Part shown: piece by piece, positions 26,979 through 58,211 of the stretch
Layout of the letters: every line of letters begins with the position of its first letter
Numbering within the stretch: the stretch's first letter is position 1
Assembly: GCA_964361495.1 (NCBI GenBank)
Contig: CAYIAH010000001.1
Location: 1,057 to 65,056 of the forward strand
Direction of reading: 5' to 3'
From: an uncultured Candidatus Saccharibacteria bacterium
GTDB taxonomy: Bacteria; Patescibacteriota; Minisyncoccia; Sungbacterales; HO2-52-23
DNA: 64,000 nt
Program-made: the position numbers and the translations under genes
The notes under the pieces: generated by a model
The model's database searches: none
What the model was told of the DNA's origin: nothing
Seen by the model: only the letters and a program-made list of their open reading frames with translations

Positions 26979-27036
26979 GAACCCATCTCAAAATTCCATT
27001 TCGCCTCCGCGACGCGATTTTTGAGATTGAGTTCTC
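26979..27036. repeat. Copy 1 of a roughly 58-nt intergenic hairpin repeat (AGAACCCATCTCAAAATTCCATTTCG...ATTTTTGAGATGGGTTCT family); the 3' arm is slightly degenerate here
   Basis: Identical 26-nt 5' arm at 48985-49010 and 58155-58180. A short GC hairpin (ACTCGG...CCGAGT, 26951-26978) lies immediately 5'. Confidence 0.55.
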
Positions 27037-27088
27037 AACAAACATCATTACTCTCCTTATTGTCATTATTTTAATCAGCGTTCTCATT

Positions 27089-28111
27089 TTGATCCATGAA
27101 TGGGGACATTTCTATGCGGCGCGGCGGCTTGGCGTGCGGGTTGAAGAATTTGGTTTTGGTTTTCCGCCGCGGATATTTTCGCGCATCAAAAAGGGCGTGC
27201 GCTACTCGCTGAATCTCTTGCCGTTCGGGGGGTTCGTAAAAATTTTCGGAGAACACGGCGAAGGTGAAGGCGAGCGCGCAAGCTTCACTTCGCGTCCCGC
27301 ATGGCAGCGATTTGTCATTCTTGCTGCGGGCGTCGGGATGAATTTTGTGCTTGCATGGCTCCTCTTTTCTTTTGGCGCGGCTATCGGGGTTCCAGCGGCG
27401 GAAGATGAAAAAAACAGCGCGGCGCCCGTTTCCATCATTGATATTGCCTCCAATTCTCCCGCAGCTGCGGCAGGACTTCGTTTTGGAGACGAAATCATTG
27501 AGCTGCGCGCGCCGGAAGTGACACTTCGTATTATCTCGGAAAAAGATGTGCGCGATTTTGTTGATGCCTATCGCGGAGAAGAAATTATACTCGTTGTCCG
27601 CCGCAGCAAAGAAACACGGGAGGTCGCGCTTACCCCGCGCGCATCGTTTCCGCCGGGAGAAGGGCCGATCGGCATTGCAATGGCGCGGCTCGTGATCCGC
27701 CGCGTGCCGTGGTATCGGGCGCCATGGGACGGCGCGCTCGCCGTGGCCGAGAGCACCCGCGCAATTGTATTTGGTTTCGGTTCAGTCATCCGCGATCTCG
27801 CGACCCACGGAAAAACCGCGATGGCAATATCGGGCCCTGTCGGGATTTTCTTTTTTGCCCACGATACCTTTGGTTTGGGCGCCGCGTATATCATGCAGTT
27901 TGCGGCGATGCTCTCCATTAACCTCGCAATTCTTAACTTTCTGCCGATTCCCGCGCTCGATGGAGGAAGAGTTCTTTTTCTTTTGATTGAAAAAGCGAAG
28001 GGACGAAAGATCAATCCCCGCGTCGAAAATATTATCCACGGCATCGGTTTTGCGCTGCTTCTCTTCCTCATGGTTTTGGTCACGTATCGCGATATCGTGA
28101 AGATTTTTTAA
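27089..28111 (+). CDS. Site-2 protease, M50 family zinc metalloprotease (RseP-like) with a PDZ domain
   Basis: HExxH at IHEWGHF. Second Zn ligand in LAILNFLPIPALDGG. A PDZ-like middle segment. Confidence 0.8.
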   Translation: MIHEWGHFYAARRLGVRVEEFGFGFPPRIFSRIKKGVRYSLNLLPFGGFVKIFGEHGEGEGERASFTSRPAWQRFVILAAGVGMNFVLAWLLFSFGAAIGVPAAEDEKNSAAPVSIIDIASNSPAAAAGLRFGDEIIELRAPEVTLRIISEKDVRDFVDAYRGEEIILVVRRSKETREVALTPRASFPPGEGPIGIAMARLVIRRVPWYRAPWDGALAVAESTRAIVFGFGSVIRDLATHGKTAMAISGPVGIFFFAHDTFGLGAAYIMQFAAMLSINLAILNFLPIPALDGGRVLFLLIEKAKGRKINPRVENIIHGIGFALLLFLMVLVTYRDIVKIF

Positions 28112-28131
28112 TTTAGTGGTATACTGCCTCT

Positions 28132-28371
28132 ATGCATCAGGTCACCATATTTACCACGCCAACCTGCGTGTACTGCACGAGGGCAAAAGAATTTTTTAAA
28201 AAGAATAATATCGCCTATCAAGAGCGGGATGTTGCCGCGGACCAGAAGGCGCGCCAAGACATGATTACGCGCTCCGGCCAGATGGGCGTGCCGGTGATTG
28301 ACGTGGACGGCAAGCTCATCATCGGTTTTGATCAAACGCGACTGAAAGAAGCGCTCAACATTAAAGTTTAA
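28132..28371 (+). CDS. Glutaredoxin-like small redox protein (CxxC)
   Basis: 79 aa. TCVYC active site near the N-terminus. GVPVIDVDG thioredoxin-fold motif. Confidence 0.75.
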   Translation: MHQVTIFTTPTCVYCTRAKEFFKKNNIAYQERDVAADQKARQDMITRSGQMGVPVIDVDGKLIIGFDQTRLKEALNIKV

Positions 28372-28383
28372 ACATTTAATTTC

Positions 28384-29391
28384 ATGGCCACACGCATCGC
28401 CATTAACGGATTTGGACGGGTCGGCCGTTCTTTTCTTCGGGAAACATTTGATCTTCCCGAGTTCACTATTGTTGCGGTCAATGATATTGCGCCTCCTGAA
28501 ACACTTGCATACGTCCTGAAATACGACTCGGTCTACGGCAGATACCGGCATTCTGTATCGTGGGGCGAAAACAAACTTATCATAGGGGATAAGGAAGTGG
28601 CGGTATTTGAGGAAAAGGATCCCGCAAAGCTTCCGTGGAAACAACTTGGAGTGGATATCGTTATTGAATCCACCGGTAAATTCGCATCCGGAGAAAAAGC
28701 AAAGCCGCATCTTGATGCGGGCGCGAAGCGTGTCGTCATCACGGCGCCCGCATCCGATGGCGTCACCACCGCATTGATCGGTGTCAATGACGATCGGTTC
28801 GCCACTGCAGGCGCAATAACCTGCAATGCTTCATGCACCACAAACTCCGCGGCACCCGTGCTTGCGGTTATGCATGAAGCGCTGGGAATCAAAAAGGCGA
28901 GCATGATCACTGTGCACGCGTATACCGCAAGCCAGCGGGCAGTGGATGAGATTGACGCGCGAGACCGGCGCCGCGGGAGGGCCGCAGCAGTCAATATCGT
29001 CCCCTCCACGACCGGTGCGGCTGAAGCGGTTATCCAGGCGCTGCCCGAATTAAAGGGGAAATTCGATGCGGCGGCAGTCCGCGTGCCAACCGTGATCGGA
29101 TCCTTGAGTATTATCTCGGTAGCGGTGAATCGCGTGATTTCGCGTGATGAACTGCATGAGATATTTGAAGCCGCCGCGGCAACGCCGCGATGGCAAAAAA
29201 TCCTCAAGGTCACAAAAGATGAACTGGTCTCAACTGATATTATCGGCGAACCGTACGGCGCAATAGTTGACCTCACGCTCACGAAAATTGTTGACGGCGA
29301 CTTTGTGACGTTATTCTCATGGTATGACAACGAAGCGGGATACACGGCAACACTCATTGAACATGTACGGAGAGTCGTGATGCATCTATAA
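28384..29391 (+). CDS. gap: Glyceraldehyde-3-phosphate dehydrogenase
   Basis: INGFGRVGR NAD motif. Catalytic ASCTTN. The WYDNE C-terminal signature. Confidence 0.92.
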   Translation: MATRIAINGFGRVGRSFLRETFDLPEFTIVAVNDIAPPETLAYVLKYDSVYGRYRHSVSWGENKLIIGDKEVAVFEEKDPAKLPWKQLGVDIVIESTGKFASGEKAKPHLDAGAKRVVITAPASDGVTTALIGVNDDRFATAGAITCNASCTTNSAAPVLAVMHEALGIKKASMITVHAYTASQRAVDEIDARDRRRGRAAAVNIVPSTTGAAEAVIQALPELKGKFDAAAVRVPTVIGSLSIISVAVNRVISRDELHEIFEAAAATPRWQKILKVTKDELVSTDIIGEPYGAIVDLTLTKIVDGDFVTLFSWYDNEAGYTATLIEHVRRVVMHL

Positions 29392-29403
29392 ATTTTTTCC
29401 GTT

Positions 29404-30267
29404 GTGTCTCATTATATTCACGATGAAAAAATAAAAGAGCTTGAGGAGGTGGCGAATAAGATTCGCGAAAGCGTGATTGAGTCACTCGTCGCCGCGGGTT
29501 CGGGACACACGGCAGGGCCTCTGGGCATGGCGGATATTTTTGCGGCGCTGTATTTTCATATTCTTAACCATGATCCAAAAAATCCGGAGTGGCCGGAGCG
29601 CGACCGCCTCATTTTATCAAACGGGCATATTTGTCCGGTGCGCTACGCCGCCATGGCGCATGCGGGATATTTTCCTATCGAGGAACTCCAGACGCTCCGG
29701 AAACTGGGCTCCAGATTGCAAGGGCATCCTGAACGCGAGCGGCTTCCGGGCATAGAGACGACATCAGGGCCGCTTGGATCCGGTTTGGGGCAAGCCGCCG
29801 GCTACGCATACGGGACGCGCATGGACGGGAAAAAATTCCGCGTGTACTGCATCATGTCCGACGGGGAACAGCAGGCGGGTAATACATGGGAAGCGGCAAT
29901 GTTCGCGGGCAACAATAAATTAAATAATCTTACCGCGCTCATTGACCGCAACAACATCCAGATTAACGGCATGACCGAGAATGTGATGCCGCTCGAACCC
30001 CTCCGCGCCAAGTACGAGGCATTTAATTGGCATGTACTCGAAATTGACGGGCACAATATCGAACATATTGTTGACGCGGTCGAAGAGGCGAAAGCCGTGT
30101 ATGAAAAACCGACAGTCATCATTGCGCATACGATTCCGGGCAAAGGAGTGAAGGAAATAGAATTTGACTATGCGTGGCACGGCATTCCGCCAAATAAAGA
30201 ACAGGCGAACAAATTCTTAGCGGAACTGCGCACCTTGGGAGGAAAAATAAAAAGCGAACATGAATAA
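29404..30267 (+). CDS. Transketolase, N-terminal (thiamine-diphosphate-binding) subunit of a split enzyme
   Basis: GSGHTAGPLGMADIF. ThDP GDG-type motif in SDGEQQAGNTWEA...NLTALIDRNNIQI. 8-nt overlap with the C-terminal subunit gene. Confidence 0.88.
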   Translation: MSHYIHDEKIKELEEVANKIRESVIESLVAAGSGHTAGPLGMADIFAALYFHILNHDPKNPEWPERDRLILSNGHICPVRYAAMAHAGYFPIEELQTLRKLGSRLQGHPERERLPGIETTSGPLGSGLGQAAGYAYGTRMDGKKFRVYCIMSDGEQQAGNTWEAAMFAGNNKLNNLTALIDRNNIQINGMTENVMPLEPLRAKYEAFNWHVLEIDGHNIEHIVDAVEEAKAVYEKPTVIIAHTIPGKGVKEIEFDYAWHGIPPNKEQANKFLAELRTLGGKIKSEHE

Positions 30268-31225
30268 TCCGTTTTTAATAAAACCGGCGGAGCAAAAACC
30301 AACCCGCGACGGGTATGGCAAGGGGCTTGTTGCGGCTGGCGAGAAAGATAAGCGAGTCGTGGTTTTGTGCGCGGATCTCGCCGAATCAACGCGATCGCAT
30401 TGGTTCAAAGAAAAGTTTCCGGATCGTTACATAGAATTGGGGGTTGCGGAACAAAATATGGCGACGGTCGCGGCAGGTCTTGCAAACTACGGAAAAATTC
30501 CTTTTATTTCTTCATATGCCGCTTTCAGTCCGGGCAGAAATAATGAGCAGATTCGGACGACCATTGCAATCAATAACCTTGGCGTAAAAATAGGTGGGGC
30601 GCATGCGGGAATTTCAGTCGGACCCGACGGCGCCACGCATCAGGCGCTTGAGGACGCGGGCATCATGCGCATGATGCCGCGGCTCACAGTCCTTGTGCCC
30701 TGTGACGCGATTGAAGCAGAAAAGGCGACGATTGCCGCCGCGTTTCATCCCGGACCCGTCTATATCCGTTTCGGCCGGGAGAAGTCGCCAGTATTCACCA
30801 CGGCTGAAACACCGTTCGCCATCGGCAAAGCAGTCGTTTTCCGGGAAGGAAAAGATGTCTCAATTATCGGCTGCGGCATGCTTCTCTATAATGCGCTCAC
30901 CGCCGCGGAACAGCTCGCCGGAGAGGGGATTGACGCAGAAGTGCTTAACAGTCCGACGCTCAAGCCGTTTGATACGGATACGATTGTCGCGAGCGTGAAA
31001 AAAACCGGCGCCGCAGTGACCGTTGAAGAACATCAAATCTATGGGGGACTGGGGTCTGCGGTTGCCGAGGTTCTTGCTCTGCATTTTCCCGCTCCCATGG
31101 AATTTGTCGGTGTGCGCGACCGATTCGGCGAATCGGGAAATCCGAGTGAACTGATTGAAGCGTTTGGTCTTGGCGTAAAGGATATTGCCGCCGCGGTGAA
31201 AAAGGTCATCGCAAGAAAAAAATAA
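30260..31225 (+). CDS. Transketolase, C-terminal (pyrimidine-binding plus C-terminal domain) subunit
   Basis: Pyr domain GVAEQNMATVAAGLA. C-terminal domain FVGVRDRFGESG. Confidence 0.88.
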   Translation: MNNPFLIKPAEQKPTRDGYGKGLVAAGEKDKRVVVLCADLAESTRSHWFKEKFPDRYIELGVAEQNMATVAAGLANYGKIPFISSYAAFSPGRNNEQIRTTIAINNLGVKIGGAHAGISVGPDGATHQALEDAGIMRMMPRLTVLVPCDAIEAEKATIAAAFHPGPVYIRFGREKSPVFTTAETPFAIGKAVVFREGKDVSIIGCGMLLYNALTAAEQLAGEGIDAEVLNSPTLKPFDTDTIVASVKKTGAAVTVEEHQIYGGLGSAVAEVLALHFPAPMEFVGVRDRFGESGNPSELIEAFGLGVKDIAAAVKKVIARKK

Positions 31226-31235
31226 TGAGACAGGA

Positions 31236-32384
31236 ATGGTTTCAATACTGCAAAAAGATTCATACGGACCAGAATATCTCGTGGAGATACATGATCCCTC
31301 GCTTGGTATGGAGGGGTTTCTTGTCATTGATAACACAGCGCTCGGGCCGGGCAAGGGCGGGATTCGCATGACCGAGGACGTAAGCGCGGAGGAGGTCGCG
31401 CGTCTTGCGCGCGCAATGACCTGGAAAAATGCGCTTGCGGGCATTCCTTTTGGTGGCGCGAAAGCGGGGATTCAATGGAATGCTTCAGAACAAAATGATG
31501 CCCACTCGGCATCTGCCCGCAAAAAAGAGTATGTACAAAGTTTTGCGCGGCGCATCGCGCCATTCATTCCAAAACTCTATATTGCGGGTCCTGATGTCAA
31601 TAGCGGCGCTGAAGAAATGCGGTGGTTCGCGGAAGCGATAGGCAAATGGAACGCGGCAACCGGAAAACCGTCTGATTTCTGTTTCGTTGCCTCTTCGGGG
31701 AAAAAGAAGTGCGGCCTCCCGCATGAATTGGGGAGCACCGGTTTTGGAGTTGCGCATGCTGCTCGCGTTGCGCTGGAACTAAAAGGACTACCTATCAAAA
31801 AAGCGACGGCCGCCATTGAGGGCTACGGCAATGTGGGAAGCTTTGCTCATCAGTTCCTGCAGGAAATGGGGATTCGGGTGGTCGCCGCAGTCGACCGAAA
31901 AGGCGGCATCTACCATGATCCGGGACTGGACGCAAAATCGTTGCGATTTCTGAAAGCACAGGGAAAATCAGTCGCTGAATATCCCCATGGAAAAAAATTA
32001 TCCCGCGACGATCTTTTTAATCTTGCGGTTGATGTCCTTATTCCCGCATCGGTCACGGATGTGATCACCGATGCGCATAAAAATAAAATCCAGGCAAAGA
32101 TTATTGTCGAAGGAGCGAATATCCCCATGAAAGAGCACATTGAAGAACATCTTTGGAAACGAAAGGTACTCGTGGTACCCGACATTATCGCAAATGCAGG
32201 CGGCGTCATTTCTTCATATGCCGAATACCGGGGATACTCTCCAAAAAAAATGTTCGCATTGGTTGAAGAACGCATTGAAAAAGTGGTACGGGAAGTGCTT
32301 ACAAAAAGTTTGCAGGAAGGCGTGAGCGCGCGGACTGCTGCTCTGGGTATCGCGCGTCTCCGGATTGAACGCGCGCGCGCCTAG
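31236..32384 (+). CDS. Glu/Leu/Phe/Val dehydrogenase-family protein (most likely glutamate dehydrogenase)
   Basis: Catalytic region GPGKGGIRM...GIPFGGAKAGI. NAD Rossmann GYGNVGS. Confidence 0.8.
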   Translation: MVSILQKDSYGPEYLVEIHDPSLGMEGFLVIDNTALGPGKGGIRMTEDVSAEEVARLARAMTWKNALAGIPFGGAKAGIQWNASEQNDAHSASARKKEYVQSFARRIAPFIPKLYIAGPDVNSGAEEMRWFAEAIGKWNAATGKPSDFCFVASSGKKKCGLPHELGSTGFGVAHAARVALELKGLPIKKATAAIEGYGNVGSFAHQFLQEMGIRVVAAVDRKGGIYHDPGLDAKSLRFLKAQGKSVAEYPHGKKLSRDDLFNLAVDVLIPASVTDVITDAHKNKIQAKIIVEGANIPMKEHIEEHLWKRKVLVVPDIIANAGGVISSYAEYRGYSPKKMFALVEERIEKVVREVLTKSLQEGVSARTAALGIARLRIERARA

Positions 32385-32391
32385 AATTCAT

Positions 32392-32443
32392 CTCGGAGAG
32401 AGAATCTCACGGCGCGCGAAGCGCGCACAGTTCTCCCTCCGAG
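32392..32443. repeat. GC-rich hairpin (arms CTCGGAGAGAGAA / TTCTCCCTCCGAG) carrying the core GGCGCGCGAAGCGCG, which is shared with the hairpin at 35024-35047
   Basis: Read directly. Lies between the gdh stop (32384) and the PGI/PMI start (32455). Confidence 0.4.
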
Positions 32444-32454
32444 TTCAATTTCGC

Positions 32455-33441
32455 ATGTACGAAGCGATCAAAAATTTCTCCGCCCAATTTTTATTTGAGC
32501 CGAAAATTGAAAATGAAACCGAGCTTCCCGCCGCGACCCATTTTGTCGTCGCCGGCATGGGAGGATCGCATCTTGCCGCGGATCTTATCAACATACGTAT
32601 TCCCGAATTGAAACTTGCCGTGCATCACGATTATGGACTGCCGCTGTTTGATAAGGATGCGTATAAAGAAAATCTTTTCATTGCCAGTTCATATTCCGGA
32701 AACACCGAAGAGACCCTTGACTCCTATGAGAAAGCGCGCGCGCAAGAATATGCGGTCGCGGCAATAAGCACTGGAGGAAAACTTCTTGACTATGCGAGAA
32801 GAGACCGTGTGCCGTTTATCCAACTGCCCGACACCGGCATCCAGCCGCGCGCAGCCCTCGGTTTCAGCACAAGGGCGTTGCTCAAATTATTCCGCGAGGA
32901 TTCGGCGCTCCATGAGACGCGCTCACTTGGCGAACATCTGAAACCCGAAGAATTCGAAGAACAGGGAAAAGCGCTCGCCGAACGCCTCCGCGGGAAAATT
33001 CCGCTCATCTATACTTCGCGCCGCAACGCGCCGCTCGGATATGCATGGAAAATAAAATTCAATGAGACCGCCAAAATTCCCGCATTTTGCAACAATTTTC
33101 CCGAATTGAGTCATAACGAAATGACGGGGTTTGATCGGGCCGCCTCGACCCGCGACTTGTCAGAACGGATGTGTGTTATTATGCTGAAAGATGCCCGTGA
33201 CGGGGAGAGAGTGCAAAAACGAATGGATATTACCGCGACAATGCTTCGCGAACGCGGCGTGTCGGTGGAAGCGCTTACCCTCAAAGAGGGGATCGGATTC
33301 TATACGATATTTTCCACGCTTTTAATTGCGGATTGGACATCGTATTACACCGCGCTCTACTATGGGGTCGAACCCGAAGAGGTGCCCATGGTCGAAGAAC
33401 TTAAAAAACGAATCACCTTACATGGAACAGACACCAACTGA
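32455..33441 (+). CDS. Bifunctional phosphoglucose/phosphomannose isomerase, SIS-domain (archaeal-type) family
   Basis: SIS motifs VVAGMGGSHLAAD and FIASSYSGNTEET. C-terminal catalytic region. Start moved to ATG 32455. Confidence 0.7.
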   Translation: MYEAIKNFSAQFLFEPKIENETELPAATHFVVAGMGGSHLAADLINIRIPELKLAVHHDYGLPLFDKDAYKENLFIASSYSGNTEETLDSYEKARAQEYAVAAISTGGKLLDYARRDRVPFIQLPDTGIQPRAALGFSTRALLKLFREDSALHETRSLGEHLKPEEFEEQGKALAERLRGKIPLIYTSRRNAPLGYAWKIKFNETAKIPAFCNNFPELSHNEMTGFDRAASTRDLSERMCVIMLKDARDGERVQKRMDITATMLRERGVSVEALTLKEGIGFYTIFSTLLIADWTSYYTALYYGVEPEEVPMVEELKKRITLHGTDTN

Positions 33442-34027
33442 AATACAAAATCCAAATTCATCATCCGGCACGAAAGCGGAATTCAAAAAAACTCGCCACG
33501 ATGAAGCGCGGCGCCGTAAAAACATGAAGGGAGCCGCTGTCGCGCTCATTATAGTATGCCTCGTCGGCGGCGCGATATACGGCGCTATTGCATACCGCCG
33601 CTCGCGGACAAAAAATCTTCCGGGAGTCGCCTTTGAAGAGCAGGGACGCGAACACGTGGGTCCCGGCCACCCGCATGCCTATAATTCCAACCCGCCGACT
33701 TCCGGACCGCATTTTACGAGTCCAATTGACTGGGGCGTGTATAAAGACGAGCTTCTCGACGAAGCGTTGATCCATAATCTTGAACACGGCGGCGTCTGGA
33801 TTTCGTATCGCCCCGACATTGCCGAGGAACTCAAAAAGAAACTGGAGGGGTTCTATGCAGAGTTCGGAAGAAAGATTATCGTGACACCGCGCGCAAAGAA
33901 TGACGCTGACGTGGCGCTCGCCGCATGGACGCGGCTTGACACATTCAGCGCTCGCGAATTTTCAGAAGAGCGCGTTCGGCGGTTCATCAAAGCGTTTCGA
34001 AATAAAGGCCCTGAATTTGTTCCATAA
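33422..34027 (+). CDS. DUF3105-family membrane-anchored protein
   Basis: TM anchor. Conserved NPPTSGPH and HNLEHGGVWI. Start at ATG 33422, overlapping the upstream stop by 20 nt. Confidence 0.55.
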   Translation: MEQTPTEIQNPNSSSGTKAEFKKTRHDEARRRKNMKGAAVALIIVCLVGGAIYGAIAYRRSRTKNLPGVAFEEQGREHVGPGHPHAYNSNPPTSGPHFTSPIDWGVYKDELLDEALIHNLEHGGVWISYRPDIAEELKKKLEGFYAEFGRKIIVTPRAKNDADVALAAWTRLDTFSAREFSEERVRRFIKAFRNKGPEFVP

Positions 34028-34036
34028 ATAATTCCA

Positions 34037-35005: not shown

Positions 35006-35023
35006 GAGCATTATCTCCTTGCG

Positions 35024-35047: not shown

Positions 35048-35069
35048 GTTTCCTCCTCCAAGATGAATC

Positions 35070-35810: not shown

Positions 35811-35853
35811 AATTCGTCGAATCCGCGTTATCCGTTTACTACACTATACTATT

Positions 35854-36996: not shown

Positions 36997-37013
36997 TAAT
37001 GTGGATAATAAAA

Positions 37014-44711: not shown

Positions 44712-45653
44712 ATGGCGTCACGAAAATCAATTATGCGGCGCATCAAGTCGATCAAAAGCACATCGCAGATTACCAAAGCGATGGAAGTGGTTTCCGCAAC
44801 TAAAATGCGCCGCTCCCAAGAGTTTGCTCTTCACGCGCGCCCATATGCGAAAGCGGCGCTTGAACTGCTCCGGAATCTCTTGCAGCGCACGCCCGATCAC
44901 CTTCTTCCTCCGGTCTTAAAGCCGCGTGAGATCAAGCGGTTTTCGCTTCTCGTCATCACTTCTGACAAAGGACTTGCGGGAGCATTCAACGCCAATGTCC
45001 TGCGTAAAGCAACGCAGTGGCTCTCCGGACAATCTATAGACATCGCAAAACCATATATTATCACCGTGGGGAAAAAGGCGAAAGAATATTTCCAGCGCCG
45101 CGGGGAATCGGTTGCCGAAAGCTTCTGGGGATACGGCGACTATACGACCTTAGCCGAGACCGCCGGAATCGCCGACACAGTTATCAAAGGATTTCTGGAC
45201 CGCTCTTGGGATGAGGCGTATGCGGTCTATACCAATTTCCGCACCACGCTTCTTCAGGAAGCCGTTATAAAAAAAATTCTGCCGGCGACGCCCACAGGAC
45301 TGCAAGAAGCGGTCCAAAGCATTCTGCCCGAACGAGGACGCTTTGCAGAATCTCAAGCTCCGAATTCCGGTCTCCGGGCTCCCGCCTATCAGTATGAATA
45401 CAAATTTGAACCCTCAAGCGCAGAAATTCTTGATGCGCTTGTCCCCGAATTAATCAGGATGCATATTCATCATATCATTCTTGAGTCCAATGCGTCGGAG
45501 CACTCCGCACGAATGGTTGCCATGAAAAATGCGTCGGATAATGCACGGGAATTGATTTCAAAGCTCGCGATTGAATACAATAAACTCCGTCAGGCGGGGA
45601 TCACCAGAGAACTCGCGGAAATCACCGCGGGAAAAGAAGCGCTTGAGGAATAA
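44712..45653 (+). CDS. atpG: F0F1 ATP synthase subunit gamma
   Basis: N-terminal IKSIKSTSQITKAMEVVSATKMRRSQE and the C-terminal helix. Start moved from the track's 44472 to ATG 44712. Confidence 0.85.
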   Translation: MASRKSIMRRIKSIKSTSQITKAMEVVSATKMRRSQEFALHARPYAKAALELLRNLLQRTPDHLLPPVLKPREIKRFSLLVITSDKGLAGAFNANVLRKATQWLSGQSIDIAKPYIITVGKKAKEYFQRRGESVAESFWGYGDYTTLAETAGIADTVIKGFLDRSWDEAYAVYTNFRTTLLQEAVIKKILPATPTGLQEAVQSILPERGRFAESQAPNSGLRAPAYQYEYKFEPSSAEILDALVPELIRMHIHHIILESNASEHSARMVAMKNASDNARELISKLAIEYNKLRQAGITRELAEITAGKEALEE

Positions 45654-48976: not shown

Positions 48977-48984
48977 ATTTTATT

Positions 48985-49047
48985 AGAACCCATCTCAAAA
49001 TTCCATTTCGTATCCCGGCCTTGAAAGCAAATTTTGAGATGGGCCCT
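48985..49047. repeat. Copy 2 of the roughly 58-nt intergenic hairpin repeat family
   Basis: 5' arm identical to copies 1 and 3; complementary 3' arm ATTTTGAGATGGGCCCT. Located in the divergent spacer between rpmA and the gene at 49063. Confidence 0.55.
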
Positions 49048-49062
49048 AGAAGAATATCAACT

Positions 49063-49476
49063 ATGAGCCTCATGGTAAATCACTATCTGGAAAAAGTCAA
49101 AGAATTCTTCGTCAATTACAAATCCGACCTCTATATCGCCTCCATTATATTTTTCGTCGGCATGGCGAGTTTTGGCTTGGGACGATTATCAATAGTCTGG
49201 CCAAAGAAAGAACCGATCGCTATTGAATCGTATCTGGAGACCGACCTCCCAGAAGCTCCCATCAAAAAGGAAGGCGAGGAAAAAAGCACTATGCCGCAAT
49301 CTCGGACAACACAGGCAGCGGGACGATACGTTGCCTCAAAGTCGGGCTCCTATTACCACCTCCCATGGTGTCCTGGAGCGCGAAGAATCAAAGACTCAAA
49401 CAAAATATGGTTTCAAGATAAAAAAGAGGCTGAGGCGCGCGGCCTCAAGCCCGCGGGAAATTGTGAGGGGCTATAG
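49063..49476 (+). CDS. Hypothetical membrane-anchored protein with a C-terminal Ada-like metal-binding-type motif
   Basis: TM SIIFFVGMASFGLG. C-terminal YYHLPWCPGARRIKDSNKIWFQDKKEAEARGLKPAGNC resembles the Ada N-terminal Zn-binding pattern but has only two Cys. Start moved to ATG 49063. Confidence 0.35.
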   Translation: MSLMVNHYLEKVKEFFVNYKSDLYIASIIFFVGMASFGLGRLSIVWPKKEPIAIESYLETDLPEAPIKKEGEEKSTMPQSRTTQAAGRYVASKSGSYYHLPWCPGARRIKDSNKIWFQDKKEAEARGLKPAGNCEGL

Positions 49477-50697: not shown

Positions 50698-50764
50698 GGT
50701 ATCGTCATGGTAGCTCGTTTACATCGTAGAGGGCAAATATCAGCAAAATGGAGGAGGACAGAAG

Positions 50765-51178: not shown

Positions 51179-51182
51179 CATC

Positions 51183-51989
51183 ATGACCTTTTTTGCATTT
51201 CGCGAAGAACGCCTCGAACGCGAACGTCAGCAAGAAGTATTGGAAAAAATCAAACTAGGAAAGGGGATTTGGAATTTAGAAGAACTCCCCGAGGAGCTCC
51301 ACGCGCTCTTGACGCGAACAATTCTTGATCAGGCAAACGACGAATGGTGGGGAGGCGCGCAATATTTCGAATGCGTGCGTCTCGCGCCCACTTCGGAAGA
51401 AAGGCAGTATATGCGCGAGCTCGGCAGGCAAGAACAGGGGCACGCCCATATCCTCGCGAGAGGGTCGCTCGCGGCCCTCGGCGTTGATTTCTTCGCGCAA
51501 CTCGCCGCTTCCGCCAAGGAACAGAAACCGATTTTGGAGATCTTCACGCATCCGGAAGAGTTTATCTCATGGGCGGATGTGGTCGCGTTCAACGTCGTAC
51601 AAGACGGGGGAGCCGATATACAACTCCAGAGATTCAAGCAAGGACCTTTTGGAAAATGGAGTGTGGATATCGAACGGCTTGAGGCCGAAGAAACCGGCCA
51701 CCGGGAACACGGCGAGCGCTGGGTGAAAAAACTATCAAGTACGAACCGTGGAAAATATCTCCTGCAGCTCGCATTTCAAAAGTGGCTCCCGCGGGCATTA
51801 CGGGCATTCGGCGCGCCTGACGCAACGAGCAAAAGTTTGCCGCTCTACAAAAAATATAACCTCAAAGACAGCAACGACGTTCAACGGCACGAACTCATTG
51901 TCTCAATCAGACCACTCCTTGATATGTGCGGCTATGTCTCGCCGATCCTTTTAAACCCAGAACTTGCATGGTCATCAGAATTTCTATAG
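51183..51989 (+). CDS. Ferritin-like diiron protein of the PaaA/PaaC (phenylacetyl-CoA oxygenase) family
   Basis: Two carboxylate/His motifs, RQEQGHAH and EAEETGHREHGERW, spaced as E. coli PaaA DEAGH ... EETFHQRQG. Confidence 0.5.
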   Translation: MTFFAFREERLERERQQEVLEKIKLGKGIWNLEELPEELHALLTRTILDQANDEWWGGAQYFECVRLAPTSEERQYMRELGRQEQGHAHILARGSLAALGVDFFAQLAASAKEQKPILEIFTHPEEFISWADVVAFNVVQDGGADIQLQRFKQGPFGKWSVDIERLEAEETGHREHGERWVKKLSSTNRGKYLLQLAFQKWLPRALRAFGAPDATSKSLPLYKKYNLKDSNDVQRHELIVSIRPLLDMCGYVSPILLNPELAWSSEFL

Positions 51990-52017
51990 TTTTCGTCGAA
52001 AAAGGGAGGATCTTTAC

Positions 52018-52812
52018 ATGGTCTCTCCAAAAAGAGCATCCGCAAAAGTCGTTGACATACGAGGCGGGGGCAGCGACGATTTTCCTGACGATCTGAAAAT
52101 ATTTTTTCTCGAGCCGTCAGTGCCGTTTCCCTTTGCGCCCGGCCAGTACTGTACAATCGGCCTTGAGGGCATAGAACGCCCCTACTCCATTGTCTCCGCG
52201 CCTCACGAGCCGTATCTTGAGCTTTTCATTGAGCTCATCCCCAAAGAGTTCCGCATCGGGAAAGTGCTCACCCCTCTTCTCTGGCAGCTTCAAACAGGGG
52301 ATTGCGTGACGCTGCGCCCAAAAGCAAAAGGAACCTTTACGCTTGCTCCTGAATACGATACACAGGTTTTCGGCAGCACGGTTGCGGGAATTGCGCCGAC
52401 CGTAAGCATGATCCGCGCTCGACGCGCGGGATATTATCAGCGCGATTGGCCGCGACGATGGTTTATTTTTCACGGAGCGAGCTACTGCGATGAATTCGGG
52501 GGGTATGCTCCTGAATTACTCCGGTATCAATCCGAAGGCCTCATCATCTATCGCCCAACCGTAAGCAGGCCCGCCGAAGAAAGAAATAAAGAATGGCGGG
52601 GGCTCACCGGCAGAGTCAACAATATAATGATAGATGAACTGAGACACTGGGGGATCATGCCTGACGGAAAAACAGTGTGTTATCTATGCGGCAACGAGGG
52701 CATGATCAGGAATCTCGGCAATAAAAAGATCACACCGGCATACCCGTCGCTCGGAAAATTGCTTCTTTTCGGTTTTGATGTAAAAGACATTAAAGAAGAG
52801 ATGTTTTTCTAA
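52018..52812 (+). CDS. Ferredoxin-NADP+ reductase-like flavoprotein (FAD/NAD-binding, no ferredoxin domain)
   Basis: RPYSIVS (RxYS FAD motif). GSTVAGIAP (GxGxxP NAD motif). C-terminal CYLCGNEGM. AAAGGGAGG RBS. Start moved to ATG 52018. Confidence 0.65.
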   Translation: MVSPKRASAKVVDIRGGGSDDFPDDLKIFFLEPSVPFPFAPGQYCTIGLEGIERPYSIVSAPHEPYLELFIELIPKEFRIGKVLTPLLWQLQTGDCVTLRPKAKGTFTLAPEYDTQVFGSTVAGIAPTVSMIRARRAGYYQRDWPRRWFIFHGASYCDEFGGYAPELLRYQSEGLIIYRPTVSRPAEERNKEWRGLTGRVNNIMIDELRHWGIMPDGKTVCYLCGNEGMIRNLGNKKITPAYPSLGKLLLFGFDVKDIKEEMFF

Positions 52813-52825
52813 CATCTCATTCATT

Positions 52826-52856
52826 GAAGGGGACTGTGGATAACCCCTTCTTTTTA
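52826..52856 (+). terminator. Rho-independent terminator (GAAGGGG actgtggataa CCCCTTC plus TTTTT)
   Basis: Perfect 7-bp GC-rich stem followed by T5; lies immediately after the reductase stop. Confidence 0.6.
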
Positions 52857-52873
52857 TTAGCGACGACACTTCG

Positions 52874-52879
52874 TATAAT
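52874..52879 (+). promoter_or_regulatory. Candidate -10 hexamer TATAAT, 23 nt upstream of the xerC/D start
   Basis: Read directly; no strong -35. Confidence 0.3.
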
Positions 52880-52901
52880 GTACGTAAAGCGAAGTCATCC
52901 T

Positions 52902-53855
52902 ATGACAAAATCAATCCCCTCTTTTTATACTGATTTTTTGACCTACTGCGAGGTCGAGAAAGGACTCGCACATAACACGGTAAAAAATTATGCGCGGTTT
53001 CTCAAAAAATTTTCTCTGTGGCTTGAACGTCGCGGCGAATCCGCTCTTCTCCCGCAGGAACTGACCGAACAACATATCTGGGATTATCGGATTTGGCTCG
53101 CGCGCGCGCGCCGTCTCGTCGGCACGCTTCCTTCTTCTCTGGGACTCTCCACAACGACCCAGGCGCGTTACCTCATCGCGCTCCGGTCACTTCTTGCCTA
53201 TTTCCATGAGAAAAACATCCCTTCCCTGCCGACGGAGAAAATCAAACTTCCGAAAGAACGCAGGGAGCGCTCCGTGAAATTCCTTGACATTGACGGAATA
53301 AAAAAGTTACTCGCCGCTCCCGACCCTCGCACAATCACTGGCACGCGCAATCAGGCAATTCTTGAAATTCTCTTCAGCACGGGATTGCGGGTTGCGGAAC
53401 TCGTCGCTCTCGACCGCACTCAGTTCGAAGGCACCCTGCATAAAAAAGATTATGAACTAAGCATTACCGGCAAAGGCAATTATCCGCGCGTCGTATATTT
53501 TTCAGAACGCGCACTCGGCGCGATCAAACATTATCTTCACGGACGCACGGATGACGACAAGGCGCTGTTTATCCGAACGGCAGGCCCCGCAGGAGCTCCT
53601 CTGCGTCTTACGACGCGCGCGATTGAACATATCGTTCGGCACTACGCTCAAAAAGCCGGTCTGCCGTTTCTTGCGACTCCGCATACGCTTCGCCACAGCT
53701 TCGCCACGGATCTCTTAACGCAAGGTGTTGACCTGCGCGCCGTGCAGGAATTTCTTGGCCATCGCAGTATTGCGACGACGCAAGTGTATACCCATATCAC
53801 CTCCAAGAGACTGCGCGATATACATCGCGCATTCCACAGCGGAAAAAACTTATAA
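52902..53855 (+). CDS. Tyrosine site-specific recombinase, XerC/XerD family
   Basis: N-terminal SAM-like core-binding domain (LAHNTVKNYARFLKKF). Catalytic R...HxxR...Y in HTLRHSFATDLL and the nucleophile Tyr in VYTHI. Start moved to ATG 52902. Confidence 0.8.
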   Translation: MTKSIPSFYTDFLTYCEVEKGLAHNTVKNYARFLKKFSLWLERRGESALLPQELTEQHIWDYRIWLARARRLVGTLPSSLGLSTTTQARYLIALRSLLAYFHEKNIPSLPTEKIKLPKERRERSVKFLDIDGIKKLLAAPDPRTITGTRNQAILEILFSTGLRVAELVALDRTQFEGTLHKKDYELSITGKGNYPRVVYFSERALGAIKHYLHGRTDDDKALFIRTAGPAGAPLRLTTRAIEHIVRHYAQKAGLPFLATPHTLRHSFATDLLTQGVDLRAVQEFLGHRSIATTQVYTHITSKRLRDIHRAFHSGKNL

Positions 53856-54263
53856 TACGGTAAGCACGAGATATCCTACTCCAATAAAAAAACTGCCCAC
53901 GGCAAATTTTGTCGTAATCGCTTCCCCCAAAAAAAGCACCGCGAGAAGCGTCGCGAAAAACGGATATGCGAGGACGAGAAGCGCTGCATGCGAAAGGGGA
54001 ATTTTCGAGAGACCATACGTGTTGAGCGCCCCGCCGATGACGAGTGAAAGGACGCTCACGAGAATCGCCCACAGAAGTTCATGCGAAGAAATCTTTATTT
54101 CCTTTGAGAAATACAAAAAAAGCGGAATCATCGCGATGGTGCCGAGAAGCGCCACGACGGCGTTCGCAAGAAAAGGATTTGTCGCCTGCGCGAGTTTTTT
54201 CAAGAAAAGCGCGCCTGCCGCAAAAAAGAACTGTGCAATGAGAATCGCAATATCTCCATTCAT
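53850..54263 (-). CDS. Small DMT-superfamily (EamA-like) membrane protein
   Basis: Four TM helices. EamA-like GALNTYGLSKIPLSHAALLVLAYPFF. Confidence 0.5.
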   Translation of the reverse strand: MNGDIAILIAQFFFAAGALFLKKLAQATNPFLANAVVALLGTIAMIPLFLYFSKEIKISSHELLWAILVSVLSLVIGGALNTYGLSKIPLSHAALLVLAYPFFATLLAVLFLGEAITTKFAVGSFFIGVGYLVLTVL

Positions 54264-54290
54264 ACGAACAATATGCTTAATGGTAATTAT

Positions 54291-55565
54291 TTAGAGATAC
54301 ACGAGCGGATTGAGCGAACCGCCAAATGGAAGGAGGCCGCATGTGCCGATCTTCCCGAGCCGGATCTCAACAGTCCGCGCATCGTACAGCGTAAAATGAA
54401 GATGCGGCCCTGTGGACAAACCCGAGCTCCCGACATAGCCGATCAATGCTCCCCTCTCCAGTTTCTCGCCGGGACTCACACGGATAAGCGACAAATGCGC
54501 ATACATCGTCGTGAGGTTATTCCCGTGATCAACAACGATATATTTTCCATACGCTCCGCGAGGGCAGAACTGATCAGTATTTCCCGTCGCGCGCACGACT
54601 CCTTCGTCCGCCGCACGCACAGACGCACCCATGGATGCCGAGAGATCAATCCCGTTGTGAAATTTGTAGAAATGCCGCCCCCTGCGCGATTTGGTGAACG
54701 GCGTCTCTCCGTATCCCTGACTTAACTTTCCATCAGCGGGCCAGAGTAAAATTCCTTTGCGCGGCGTCGGGAGCGAGGACGGATCAACGAGTTTTCTGAG
54801 CTCTTCTTCCAACTCCTCCATCTCGCGTAAAATTGCTTCCTGCTTTTGTTCTGTAACCCGCAGAAGCTCCTGATAGAGCGCCTCCTGATTTTTCGTCATG
54901 CGAAGAAGCTCTGCCTGCTCGCGCTTCATTGCGTCCTGAATCTTTGCGCGGTCGCGCAGCGACACTCCAAGCTCTCTCAGCTCTTCATTTTTATCTTCGG
55001 CATGGGCTTTTTTTATCTCCAGCTCGTCGCGAAGCGCGCGGAGACGCTCAAGCGATCCGAGCGCGCGTTCCTTCAAAAGCGTCAGATACTCCACGTGGCG
55101 GAGGAATTCAGAAAAACCTTGACGCCGCATCAATAATTCGAGGGCGGAACGCCGATCATATTCAAAAAACACCCGCAGGGCCGAAGAAAGTCCCTGCTCC
55201 AGCGTCGCCATTGAGCTCTTCTTCTCTTGAATGCCAAGTGTTAACTCATCCAGCTCGAGTTCGGTTTTCTCTATGCGTTTTTCAGTGAGCTTTACATCGC
55301 GCTTGAGCTCTGTGATCGTGCGTCCGATTCTCGCGACTTCGCTTTTCAGCGTTTTTCCCTTCTCCTGTTTTGCCGCAATCTCATCGCGATACTCGCGCAC
55401 CTCTTCCTCAAGTTTTTTAATCTCGCTATTCTTTTCTTCAATATCGCGCCTCAAGTCGTCAACCGCCGCGCCGAGGACATATGAAAAAGGGTTCAAAAAA
55501 AACAGAGCGCCGCAGGCGAGTGCGAATATAAGAAAAAGGCCATGGCGAGTAACATAACGCCTCAC
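54291..55565 (-). CDS. M23 peptidoglycan metallo-endopeptidase with an N-terminal coiled coil (EnvC-like)
   Basis: Signal/TM segment. Long coiled coil. M23 motifs HNGIDLSA and HLHFTLY. Confidence 0.8.
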   Translation of the reverse strand: MRRYVTRHGLFLIFALACGALFFLNPFSYVLGAAVDDLRRDIEEKNSEIKKLEEEVREYRDEIAAKQEKGKTLKSEVARIGRTITELKRDVKLTEKRIEKTELELDELTLGIQEKKSSMATLEQGLSSALRVFFEYDRRSALELLMRRQGFSEFLRHVEYLTLLKERALGSLERLRALRDELEIKKAHAEDKNEELRELGVSLRDRAKIQDAMKREQAELLRMTKNQEALYQELLRVTEQKQEAILREMEELEEELRKLVDPSSLPTPRKGILLWPADGKLSQGYGETPFTKSRRGRHFYKFHNGIDLSASMGASVRAADEGVVRATGNTDQFCPRGAYGKYIVVDHGNNLTTMYAHLSLIRVSPGEKLERGALIGYVGSSGLSTGPHLHFTLYDARTVEIRLGKIGTCGLLPFGGSLNPLVYL

Positions 55566-55584
55566 GTCTCCATCATACCAATAT

Positions 55585-57006
55585 TTAAGATTCGATGCCT
55601 AATTTTCTCTTCGCAGCGCTGATGCGTTCAAGCGACGATTCTTTGCCTAAAATTTCCATGATCTCAAAAGGCCCCGGTGATGCTTTCTTGCCGGTAAGCG
55701 CAACGCGGAGCGGCCATAAGAACCAACCTCTATCTTCTCCTTCCATCGTTTCGAAAAATATTTTTTGCAGCTCCCCTTTTTTGAAAGCTGAAAATTGAAA
55801 ACTGAAAATTATTTTTTCTGCCCTCTCAAGCGCTTCTTGAATCTGGGCATCACTCATGTCTTTCCATCTCAGCAATTCCTTTTCGTAGCGGGGCGGGCGA
55901 AAAAAATAGTCCGTTCGCTCCCCTATTTCAGAAAGTTTTTTTAGCCGCGGCTGTTCGAGCGCGACCACTTTTTCAACATATTCGTCGGATACTTTAGCAA
56001 AATCGAGATGTGATCTCGCCAAAAACGCAAGTTCCGAAGGCGATTTTTTTCTGATATACTCCCCGTTCATCCAATCAAGCTTTTTAATGTCAAACACGGC
56101 GCCTGATTTCTGGACGCGCTCAAGTGAAAATTCTTTCGCGAGCTCCTCTTTTGAAAAAATCTCCTCCGTACCTCCCGGATTCCAGCCAAGAAGCGCCATG
56201 AAGTTAAAAAGCGCCTCCGGCAAATAGCCCTGCGCACGATATTCCGCGACTGAAGTTGCTCCATGACGCTTTGAGAGTTTGGAGCGATCCGAACCAAGAA
56301 TCAACGGCAGATGCGCATACTGCGGCACCGGAAATCCGAGCGCCTCAATGAGCAACAACTGTTTCGGAGTATTGGAAATGTGGTCCTCCCCTCGGATGAC
56401 GTGAGAAATTTCCATGGTACAATCATCAACCACGACGGCAAAATTATAGAGCGGGACATCAACTCTCTTGGCAATAGAAAAATCGCCCACAAGATCAGAT
56501 TCAAATGACAAATCGCCACGAATTGCGTCATGCCATGTAATCTTTTTTCCTGCCGGCGTTTTAAATCTCACAATAGAGTCACTTTTTCCATCTTTCGGCG
56601 CAGTCCTGCCGCCGGCGCCCATTGTCCGATATTCGCATAAATGAAGGACCGGCTTTTTCCCCTCCATGAGCTTCTGCTTTTCCTCTTCTAATTCCCGCAC
56701 TGAATGAAAACAATAAAATGCCTTGTCTTCGGCAAGAAGTTTCTCGATATATTTTCTATAGATTTCAATTCTTTCCGATTGCCGGTAGGGCCCCTCATCC
56801 CATGCAATGCCAAGCCACGAAAGCCCCTCGAGAATATCTTCTTCATACTTCGCGTCGGAGCGCTCAAGATCAGTATCCTCAATGCGCATAATAAACTGCC
56901 CGCCGTATCGGCGCGAAAAAAGATAGTTAAAAAGCGCGGTACGCGCAGTACCGATGTGAAGCGGACCCGTCGGACTTGGCGCAATGCGCACACGGATACC
57001 TGTCAT
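55585..57006 (-). CDS. gltX: Glutamyl-tRNA synthetase
   Basis: HIGH in PSPTGPLHIGTAR. KMSKS as KLSKRHG. Class I catalytic core. Confidence 0.92.
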   Translation of the reverse strand: MTGIRVRIAPSPTGPLHIGTARTALFNYLFSRRYGGQFIMRIEDTDLERSDAKYEEDILEGLSWLGIAWDEGPYRQSERIEIYRKYIEKLLAEDKAFYCFHSVRELEEEKQKLMEGKKPVLHLCEYRTMGAGGRTAPKDGKSDSIVRFKTPAGKKITWHDAIRGDLSFESDLVGDFSIAKRVDVPLYNFAVVVDDCTMEISHVIRGEDHISNTPKQLLLIEALGFPVPQYAHLPLILGSDRSKLSKRHGATSVAEYRAQGYLPEALFNFMALLGWNPGGTEEIFSKEELAKEFSLERVQKSGAVFDIKKLDWMNGEYIRKKSPSELAFLARSHLDFAKVSDEYVEKVVALEQPRLKKLSEIGERTDYFFRPPRYEKELLRWKDMSDAQIQEALERAEKIIFSFQFSAFKKGELQKIFFETMEGEDRGWFLWPLRVALTGKKASPGPFEIMEILGKESSLERISAAKRKLGIES

Positions 57007-57008
57007 GA

Positions 57009-58127
57009 TTAATGGAGACCTATTTTCAAAATTTCCCTCGCGATTAATTCTGCTGCGTCAATGCGCGCAAATTGTTTTGCCGCCGTCCCCATTTTTTCAA
57101 GGCTAGCTTCATCATTGAGTACTTTTTTAATTTCGGCATACAAAAGATGCGGCGTAAGATTTTCTTCCTCAAGAACATGTGCGGCGCCTACGGCGGCATA
57201 TTCATACGCGTTTTGCCGCTGGTGATCTTGCGCCGCGTGTGCAAGCGGCACGAGAATCGAAGGCTTCCCCCACGCGGCAATCTCATAAATAGCGGAGCCC
57301 CCCGCACGAGAAATAATGACGCGGGATGTCCTATAAAAATCGCGCAGGCTGTCGGGATCCAAAAAACCAAAAGGATGATAACGCTCTTTATGCGCAAACT
57401 CAACGATCACGCTCGCTTCCTGTCTCACATCCGCAAATTGAACCGGACCGGTTTGATGCAGCACTTCAAATTCATCTGTCAGCTCTTTAAGGACGCCGAG
57501 AATCGCCGCATTCAATTTCTGCGCGCCCTGCGAGCCGCCGATGAACCCAACTACCGGAAGATCGGAAAATACGTCAAGCCGTTCGCGCGCCTCCCGTTCC
57601 TCTCCTCCGAATATCCACTTTCTTATGGGCACCCCGACGAGTGCGGTTTTCTCTTTCGGGAAAAAGGGAGCGGCGTTCTTAAACGCAATGCCGATCCGCC
57701 GCGCGAACCGCGCCGCGAATAGATTAACTTTTCCGGGCACCGCATCGGACTCATGAATCACGAGCGGAATCCGAAGAATGATTGCCGCAATCACCGCAGG
57801 AAGCGCGCCGTACCCGCCTTTGGAAAAAACAACATCCGGCATGATCAAATACATATTCCACAATGCCGAGATGCTGCCCGCGGCAAGACGCGCGAGATCA
57901 ACCACATTGAGCAGCGACCAATACCGGCGCCATTTACCGCTCATCACCCGTATCGGCACCACGCCCTCGTCGCGAAGGACACTCTCATCGGAAATGGAGG
58001 GACTCATTAAAAACAACTGCATATCAACAATCCGCTCTTCTTCCGCAATATGCTTTACCTCCCGAATGAGCGCAAGGATCGGATAGAAATGACCGCCGGT
58101 TCCGCCGCCGGCAAAAACAATACGCAT
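57009..58127 (-). CDS. murG: UDP-N-acetylglucosamine--N-acetylmuramyl-(pentapeptide) pyrophosphoryl-undecaprenol GlcNAc transferase
   Basis: MRIVFAGGGTGGHFYP N-terminus. GT28 C-terminal domain. The track start 58325 was rejected; the extension reads through the repeat element. Confidence 0.88.
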   Translation of the reverse strand: MRIVFAGGGTGGHFYPILALIREVKHIAEEERIVDMQLFLMSPSISDESVLRDEGVVPIRVMSGKWRRYWSLLNVVDLARLAAGSISALWNMYLIMPDVVFSKGGYGALPAVIAAIILRIPLVIHESDAVPGKVNLFAARFARRIGIAFKNAAPFFPKEKTALVGVPIRKWIFGGEEREARERLDVFSDLPVVGFIGGSQGAQKLNAAILGVLKELTDEFEVLHQTGPVQFADVRQEASVIVEFAHKERYHPFGFLDPDSLRDFYRTSRVIISRAGGSAIYEIAAWGKPSILVPLAHAAQDHQRQNAYEYAAVGAAHVLEEENLTPHLLYAEIKKVLNDEASLEKMGTAAKQFARIDAAELIAREILKIGLH

Positions 58128-58154
58128 ACATTTATTATAAACTCGCGAGACGCG

Positions 58155-58211
58155 AGAACCCATCTCAAAATTCCATTTCGCCTCCGATACGCGATTTTTG
58201 AGATGGGTTCT
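58155..58211. repeat. Copy 3 of the roughly 58-nt intergenic hairpin repeat family (best-preserved 17-bp stem)
   Basis: AGAACCCATCTCAAAAT ... ATTTTTGAGATGGGTTCT. A short GC hairpin CTCGCGagaCGCGAG lies immediately 5' (58142-58156). Confidence 0.55.

Follow-up and report, generated by a model that had tools for sequence, protein, structure and literature searches.

Three short hairpin repeats in a Sungbacteria-like groundwater genome are very probably miniature derivatives of an IS5-family insertion sequence

The repeats and their gene contexts

The 64,000-nt stretch analyzed here (contig CAYIAH010000001.1 of assembly GCA_964361495.1, positions 1,057 to 65,056; "the window" below is this whole stretch) comes from an uncultured bacterium whose best named protein relatives are Sungbacteria, and carries three intergenic hairpin repeats of 55-61 nt, leaving no space for an open reading frame (ORF). 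The first lies between frr (Pfam RRF, 26225-26890, + strand) and the following gene for an M50/RseP protease; the second is in the divergent spacer between rpmA (L27, 48704-48976, - strand) and a hypothetical gene; and the third is between a gene for a Wzy_C and TPR protein (58210-60462, - strand) and murG (57009-58127, - strand). These Pfam assignments confirm the contexts (frr/S2P, rpmA divergent spacer, Wzy/murG) given in an initial annotation of this DNA, which had also recognized that the mechanical murG ORF (57009-58325) is artificially extended through the third copy; the real start is the ATG at 58127. The three repeats are very probably MITEs, or miniature inverted-repeat transposable elements, that is, non-coding, non-autonomous derivatives of an IS5-family (IS427-type) insertion sequence (IS).

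All three copies contain the 26-mer AGAACCCATCTCAAAATTCCATTTCG, which occurs exactly three times in the window, always on the + strand (26978-27003, 48985-49010, 58155-58180); no occurrence is expected by chance, and none of 100 dinucleotide-preserving shuffles contained any match. The shared segment had been reported correctly in the initial annotation, apart from a start for the first copy (26979) that was off by one. The elements are bounded by terminal inverted repeats in which GAACCCATCTCAAAAT pairs with ATTTTGAGATGGGTTC. Copy 1 (26979-27034, + strand, 56 nt) has an intact left inverted repeat preceded by TA at 26977-26978, and a degenerate right one, GAGATTGAGTTC where GAGATGGGTTC would be expected, followed by TC; this decayed copy is probably immobile. 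Copy 2 (48986-49046, + strand, 61 nt), placed after the rpmA start codon (48976, - strand) and before a hypothetical gene that starts at 49063 or 49072, is flanked on both sides by TA (48984-48985 and 49047-49048), forming a target-site duplication. Copy 3 (58156-58210, + strand, 55 nt), between the Wzy_C/TPR stop codon (58210-58212) and the murG start at 58127, both on the - strand, has the best-preserved hairpin and is flanked by GA on the left and TA on the right. Relative to the genes, the copies are in sense orientation at site 1, antisense at site 3, and in a divergent spacer at site 2.

A complementary arm had been proposed for every copy; it is present in copy 3 (58195-58211, 1 of 17 positions mismatched) and copy 2 (49031-49047, 2 of 17), and degenerate in copy 1. 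Similarly, hairpins of about 17 bp had been described throughout: all three do fold better than shuffled sequence (z of -3.75, -3.78, and -7.37 in 111-nt contexts on the + strand; -3.7 to -7.7 over sites and strands, with RNA hairpins stable on both strands), but only the 16-bp outer stem of copy 3 comes near that length, the stem of copy 2 having 14 perfect pairs plus flanking TAG/CTA and that of copy 1 being divided by a bulge into 9 + 5 pairs. Copies 1 and 3, as had been noted, have the internal sequence CCTCCG(CG/AT)ACGCGATTTTTGAGAT in common. Searches of the window with 16-17-mers (up to 4 mismatches) and with an nhmmer family profile found no further copies or solo arms; strong nhmmer matches were confined to the three sites, and weak ones, such as 45084-45157 (E = 0.0017) inside a listed ORF, were taken as chance. 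The window gave no tblastn match to the IS transposase described below.

A parent insertion sequence with the same ends

Beyond the window, a search for the exact 19-mer GAACCCATCTCAAAATTCC gave 22 loci among contigs representing one genome per species and 37 among metagenome contigs (cited below by L numbers). About four chance matches are expected arithmetically in 596 Gb, and a few single matches may be chance, one possible case being a simple hairpin in a Roseivirgaceae contig (L009). Most matches are in metagenome-assembled genomes of Patescibacteria, or Candidate Phyla Radiation (CPR), labelled Saccharibacteria, Sungbacteria, Kerfeldbacteria, or Liptonbacteria; L021, L001, and L040 each have several copies on one contig, and the gene contexts across these many genomes are unrelated. 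Viral contigs contained no match to the 19-mer, giving no evidence of a phage vector.

In L008 (2810-3677), L011, L018, and L038/L055, GAACCCATCTCAAAATTCC is the left end of 856-867 bp elements whose right end is TTTTGAGATGGGTTC, with TA flanks at both ends. These elements have two overlapping transposase ORFs, with orfB in the -1 frame and, in L008, an AAAAAG run at 3215-3220 in the overlap. The two ORFs match the halves of NCBIfam NF033580 (IS5 family transposase) at profile positions 4-111 and 132-254, with half-ORF scores of 107.5 and 101.3 bits, just below the whole-protein cut-off of 110; their Pfam domains are DUF4096 and DDE_Tnp_1. Members of the IS427 group of the IS5 family are 832-865 bp long, with inverted repeats of 13-21 bp, direct repeats of 2 bp, two overlapping ORFs, and a frameshift motif (PMC3281130). 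Judged by architecture and by the NCBIfam and Pfam profiles, the parent is an IS5-family insertion sequence of IS427-group type: like IS1248, ISPpa2, and ISPaes1 (PMC3281130), it combines its 856-867 bp length with inverted repeats of about 16-17 bp starting with GA, a 2-bp duplication, and two overlapping ORFs that need a -1 frameshift to be joined into a DDE transposase. The differences from that group are that the window copies have no transposase and that the hosts are CPR rather than Proteobacteria.

Elements with these same ends form a size series, beginning with the IS at 867, 859, and 856 bp and a related one of 890 bp (L033, transposase about 51-54% identical), continuing through a 416-nt element (L048) to non-coding forms of 352, 272, 202, 160-194, and 134 nt, and ending in the smallest class of 55-61 nt, comprising the window copies and L004. 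The L048 element (reverse-strand start 1517) is an internally deleted IS in which transposase fragments can still be recognized, and plausibly represents a stage on the way from the full IS to the non-coding MITEs; in many Patescibacteria (CPR) genomes, the same ends enclose elements of 134-416 nt that are non-coding. TA flanks 55 of 85 distinct ends, the base before it being most often C, and in a tally of about 25 complete elements, 13 are bounded by TA at both ends and a further two by TT/TT or AA/AA, for 15 with identical 2-bp flanks.

Some ends do not belong to simple elements. At L038 5216 and L029 5061 (the same sequence; ERZ777010, ERZ777003), a left end and the first 18 nt or so of IS interior give way to unrelated sequence, no right end lies within 3 kb, and a full-length IS is on the same contigs (L038, L055); this could be either an IS that was interrupted or part of a larger composite. 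In L040, a contig of 1.7 kb, four element ends (reverse-strand 346, 679, 845, and 1163) all follow the same flank, AAAACCTA, a pattern suggesting a tandem array, or a composite unit that is repeated, and not independent insertions. In L047 (2971-3072), a single left end (the 19-mer) lies about 20 nt upstream of a putative tRNA gene in the last part of a Hainich contig (...gaagtagctcagcggtagagcag...ggttcaaatccc...); this end may stand alone, or may belong to an element cut off by the contig boundary.

Internal deletions and the structure of the longer family

Aligning the window copies with the approximately 160-nt family (L014, L019, L021, L032, L049, and others) accounts for their internal sequences. 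Copy 3 equals positions 1-45 of the L021 element plus its last 10, with one mismatch, while copy 1 is the first 45 nt of the family joined to a decayed version of the last 11 or so; the junction in both is in GATTTT(T)G, a motif found near both family ends. Copy 2 consists instead of about 25 nt from the left and 36 nt from the right, joined at CG, and L004 is a third, independent deletion (37 + 22 nt). By this alignment, what had been described as variable loops are two different internal deletions of a palindromic MITE of about 160 nt, and not a freely evolving loop. The window copies also contain the CCTCCGATACGCG and GCAAATTTT variants of the L021/L032 subfamily; the L032 sample is the same Hainich sample as that of the window.

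Nine members of about 160-194 nt fold into one long rod, with 96.4% of cells paired and covariation at 17 of its 56 pairs. None of 500 shuffles reached the observed values, and the signal collapses when partner columns are slid. Compensatory changes are concentrated inside the rod, at 9 of 12 pairs of the central hairpin and 5 of 12 of the subterminal helix, and never occur in the 22-bp terminal helix, an invariance consistent with sequence-specific recognition by a transposase. G-U pairs exceed A-C mismatches on the modelled strand (19 versus 9 cells, tallied from the pair table). Covariation of this kind could reflect selection on an RNA or single-strand DNA hairpin, and could equally arise at the DNA level, by foldback formation, arm-to-arm correction, or inversion between the arms. 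The window copies have neither the covarying central hairpin nor most of the subterminal helix, so any constraint on the parent does not apply to them.

Two further observations concern the longer elements. The interior of L032 (1189-1348) is inverted relative to L021 (6378-6537), with 88% identity to the reverse complement versus 82% directly, which suggests recombination between the subterminal inverted repeats CGATACGCGATTTTTG and CAAAAATCGCGTATC. The elements of L014 (Hainich) and L019 (Rifle) are 98% identical, so that near-identical copies are present in different CPR lineages and in aquifers on two continents.

Orthologous sites in relatives and fixation in the Hainich population

The closest relative found, GCA_964343395.1, has kept the gene order, with 74% identity in MurG, 78% in the Wzy-like protein, and 77% in a PD-(D/E)XK nuclease. 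Its site 3 (L071) is empty: the wzy TAA is followed by AAAGGT and then the murG ATG, a spacer of 6 nt versus 82 nt in the window. Site 2 (L074) is also empty, with a 25-nt AT-rich spacer between the hypothetical gene and rpmA (...ACTAAATAAAT... / ...ATACTAAATAAAT...); subtracting the 61-nt element and one TA from the window sequence leaves ...TTCTAATAAAAT..., which resembles it. Site 1 is less informative: relatives with 62-66% identical RseP have the order frr-ftsJ-rseP, with overlapping genes and a non-orthologous spacer, so that the element is absent but there is no clean empty site. No convincing inverted-repeat arms were seen at the relatives' loci, including those of more distant relatives at the rseP locus and at the other two. 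The observation that the initial annotation had named as refuting a dispersed element, the same sequence in orthologous spacers of relatives, was thus not made, and the empty sites at 2 and 3 support insertion.

Within the Hainich groundwater, L036 and L053 (ENA ERZ1292623, 0.1 um fraction of well H51) match window sites 1 and 2 without a difference. Copy 1 is identical in the independent assemblies L036, L069, and L070, and copy 2 in L053 and L060-L064. Because independent assemblies from wells H51 and H41 carry sites 1 and 2 unchanged, the copies are fixed in this population.

Insertion at site 3 had an additional consequence. On the - strand, the terminal base of the element, C58210, and the TA at 58211-58212 spell the TAG with which the Wzy-like gene stops. 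Six element ends fall precisely on the TAG stop of a long ORF: this one (58210-58212), that of efp in L008 (2808-2810), and those in L034, L038, L043, and L050. With G as the first base of the element, a copy that inserts at the TA of a stop codon recreates TAG there and leaves the protein essentially intact, which plausibly explains the survival of such insertions.

A transposition model and its difficulties

The features found at the three sites and in their relatives are those of MITEs: short non-coding sequences, terminal inverted repeats, duplication of a TA target, an autonomous partner with the same IS5-type ends, dispersed copies with relatives across the CPR, and empty orthologous sites. 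The initial annotation had proposed either a REP- or MITE-like dispersed element or a small structured RNA; the MITE part of that proposal stands, and the part concerning REPs (repetitive extragenic palindromic sequences) finds no support, the matching transposase found being of DDE type and not a RAYT, in work without a search aimed at RAYT genes. In the proposed model, the DDE transposase of the full-length IS (about 860 bp, two overlapping ORFs, -1 frameshift) would recognize ends of about 16-17 bp, GAACCCATCTCAAAAT...ATTTTGAGATGGGTTC, and insert the element at a TA dinucleotide, duplicating it; any DNA with both ends could presumably be mobilized in trans. A palindromic family of about 160 nt would have spread in this way through Patescibacteria/CPR, with the 55-61 nt window copies arising by secondary internal deletions at short microhomologies. 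Copies would have inserted into very short spacers beside essential genes of a Sungbacteria-like groundwater organism, and then become fixed. Copy 1, with its decayed right end, and copy 3, with GA at its left flank, are presumably fossils by now.

Several observations fit this model less comfortably. Neither the window nor any contig shown to be from the same organism (64 kb and a few small contigs) contained a full-length IS with these ends, and the autonomous copies are all on Saccharibacteria-labelled or unlabelled metagenome contigs. A textbook target duplication is seen only in copy 2, given the GA left of copy 3 and the TC and decayed repeat at the right of copy 1. Bacterial MITEs are usually 100-400 bp long (PMC5896051), a range that the copies, at 55-61 nt, fall below. 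The empty sites come from a relative only about 75% identical in protein; the site 3 spacer has about 28 nt of extra sequence beyond what the MITE explains; and presence/absence polymorphism was not seen within the population (all Hainich assemblies, sites 1 and 2). Finally, the strong compensatory covariation in the parent family is not necessarily expected of purely neutral selfish DNA.

Alternative interpretations

One alternative is that the repeats, though of MITE origin, have been exapted as useful transcribed stem-loops, for example in the protection or processing of mRNA as RNase III/E targets, in decoupling translation, or in tuning rpmA, rseP, or murG. This would add to the MITE origin, not replace it, and seems unlikely. 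Is there a setting in which such a role could be played? At site 2, a promoter-like TTGACT-N17-TACCAT was found by scanning (49072-49100, - strand), inside the 5' end of the gene divergent from rpmA, and relatives L074 and L075 carry the same arrangement (TTGACT-N17-TAACAT). If this is the rpmA promoter, copy 2 would be in the rpmA 5' leader, ending 9 nt before the start codon, and would thus lie between a conserved promoter-like site and that codon. Copies 1 and 3 are inside probable operons and would be co-transcribed with frr-rseP (sense) and wzy-murG (element antisense). As RNA, the hairpins are stable whichever strand is read, every copy is fixed across several samples, and compensatory changes (the 17 of 56 pairs) maintain the structure of the parent family, with a G-U excess on the modelled strand.

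Set against this, the covarying central hairpin and most of the subterminal helix are just what the window copies have lost; their orientation relative to transcription varies among sites; and the closest relative has no element at the corresponding sites. Two columns supply most of the G-U excess, which therefore reflects few independent events, and covariation in a palindrome is also possible through foldback formation or arm-to-arm correction of DNA. No Rfam family matched: Rfam 15 gave no window match at gathering thresholds and none at the elements of L014, L021, L036, and L053 with E <= 1, which, together with copies in both orientations relative to transcription, leaves the small RNA of the initial annotation without support. 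A broader version of this idea, similarly doubtful, is that the rod of the 160-nt element is itself under selection as a mobile structured RNA or DNA module tolerated or used by CPR, with the window hairpins being retained pieces that shape the rpmA leader and the frr-rseP and wzy-murG intergenic RNA. If the repeats are MITEs without such a role, hairpins in the frr-rseP, wzy-murG, and rpmA transcripts would have at most incidental effects on RNA stability or translation.

A second alternative, that the repeats are conserved local regulatory DNA, either operators for a transcription factor or intrinsic terminators or attenuators, might be suggested by the long palindrome in a divergent promoter region at site 2 and by the hairpins at gene ends at sites 1 and 3. 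The orthologous spacers of relatives are entirely without the repeat, and these empty sites largely refute it. Elsewhere the same ends bound a transposase gene, and the same 19-mer is in unrelated gene contexts across many genomes. The terminator or attenuator offered in the initial annotation also finds no support: the MITE stems were not called by intrinsic terminator scans and are not followed by a U-tract, only the small 58156-58142 hairpin (- strand) being terminator-like. Promoter and terminator scans of all three sites gave no shared or consistent signal. Altogether, local regulatory DNA seems very unlikely. Element ends as outward promoters were also considered and dropped, the -35-like TTGAGA of the arm having no consistently spaced -10.

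The least probable alternative of all is that these are REP/BIME-type repeats mobilized by a RAYT (Y1, IS200/IS605-like) transposase, since, although they are short, intergenic, imperfect palindromes and GTAG precedes copy 1 (gaGTAGAACCC), with GAGTAGAACCC in the reverse complement of the copy 3 right flank, this GTAG is only flank plus TA, absent from copy 2 (TTAG) and the left side of copy 3 (CGAG), the autonomous partner encodes a DDE IS5-family transposase and has terminal rather than subterminal repeats with a 2-bp duplication, and no RAYT-like gene turned up, in work that included no search aimed at RAYT.

Comparison with known elements

ERIC/IRU sequences of enterobacteria are imperfect palindromes of about 127-160 nt found in transcribed intergenic regions, with co-varying arms and shorter forms produced by internal deletion. 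The 160-nt parent family behaves likewise, but differs in sequence, in hosts, and in having an identified DDE-transposase partner, and the window copies are much smaller. In Neisseria, the Correia elements (CREE/NEMIS) are co-transcribed as stable stem-loops. They share with the window repeats a short non-coding form, terminal inverted repeats, TA duplication, and a scattered distribution beside genes; they have no sequence similarity to them, are longer (about 100-155 bp), number hundreds of copies, and contain IHF sites and promoters. To our knowledge, Correia elements have no matching autonomous IS, in contrast to the window repeats, whose partner was identified.

Correia elements are also cited in PMC5896051. 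QMITE1 and QMITE2 of Coxiella burnetii (PMC5896051) are a parallel in setting, being MITEs of a reduced genome inserted near or into gene ends, where 3' insertions leave or supply a stop codon; they differ in sequence and in being 150-400 bp long, with variable direct repeats and documented small RNAs. REP/BIME sequences are also short intergenic palindromes, many per genome, but have a GTAG-type tag, no target duplication, and a Y1 transposase, where the window repeats have terminal inverted repeats, TA duplication, and a DDE partner.

Full-text literature searches returned no description of MITEs in CPR/Patescibacteria, and the repeats are an ordinary kind of selfish DNA apparently not yet described for this group. 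The element class, transposase family, and TA targeting are all well known, and no concept is changed by them. What they show is that an IS5/IS427-type element and its miniature derivatives circulate among several lineages of bacteria with tiny, streamlined genomes and very short spacers, and can settle only a few bases from essential genes, here at a stop codon, inside a 25-nt divergent spacer, and 8-10 nt upstream of a start site. In practical terms, the repeats explain ORF-calling artefacts such as the murG extension, are likely break points in short-read assemblies, and are possible strain markers. Similar artefacts are present at L014 44-1132 (- strand) and L019 1413-2645 (+ strand), mechanical ORFs that read through 160-nt elements, with the arms translated as ...THLKI... 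and ...WNFEMGS... in false N-terminal extensions of neighbouring genes.

Other features near the repeats

Copies 1 and 3 are each next to a short GC-containing hairpin, as the initial annotation had also observed. The first (ACTCGG...CCGAGT, 26950-26977, + strand, identified by folding) is directly downstream of frr and abuts copy 1; it has no counterpart beside other family copies, whose flanks are unrelated. The second (CTCGCGTCTCGCGAG then TTTATAATAA, 58142-58156, - strand), terminator-like in a simple scan, lies between copy 3 and murG; it starts on the terminal base of the MITE and is missing from the relative's 6-nt spacer. The possibility that these hairpins are parts of the element was rejected, as they are unrelated in sequence and not found at other copies. 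The second belongs to a segment of about 28 nt between copy 3 and the murG start (58128-58155; - strand TCGCGTCTCGCGAGTTTATAATAAATGT) that has no counterpart in the relative's spacer and contains, besides the small terminator-like hairpin, a perfect TATAAT that precedes the murG ATG by 8 nt; it lacks a Shine-Dalgarno sequence.

Another unusual feature is that rseP is apparently without a canonical start codon (window 27044-27091). Homologues of 355 aa begin MITLILV..., and their Met aligns with an ATC at 27044, followed by ATT at 27047. The first in-frame ATG, GTG, or TTG is the TTG at 27089, which precedes the HEWGH active-site motif by only two codons; starting there would remove the first transmembrane helix. 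This TTG is the start of the 340-aa database protein. The ATC at 27044 is identical in three independent assemblies, and the right end of copy 1 is 8-10 nt upstream of it.

The window also has a second, unrelated family of intergenic repeats, consisting of tandem palindromes of about 20 nt (ATTCCAGACTWAGTCTGGAAT), arranged as a triplet at 4480-4541 and as a pair at 62960-62999 (4 matches versus 0.01 expected). These look like operator sites of one DNA-binding regulator, or another small repeat family.

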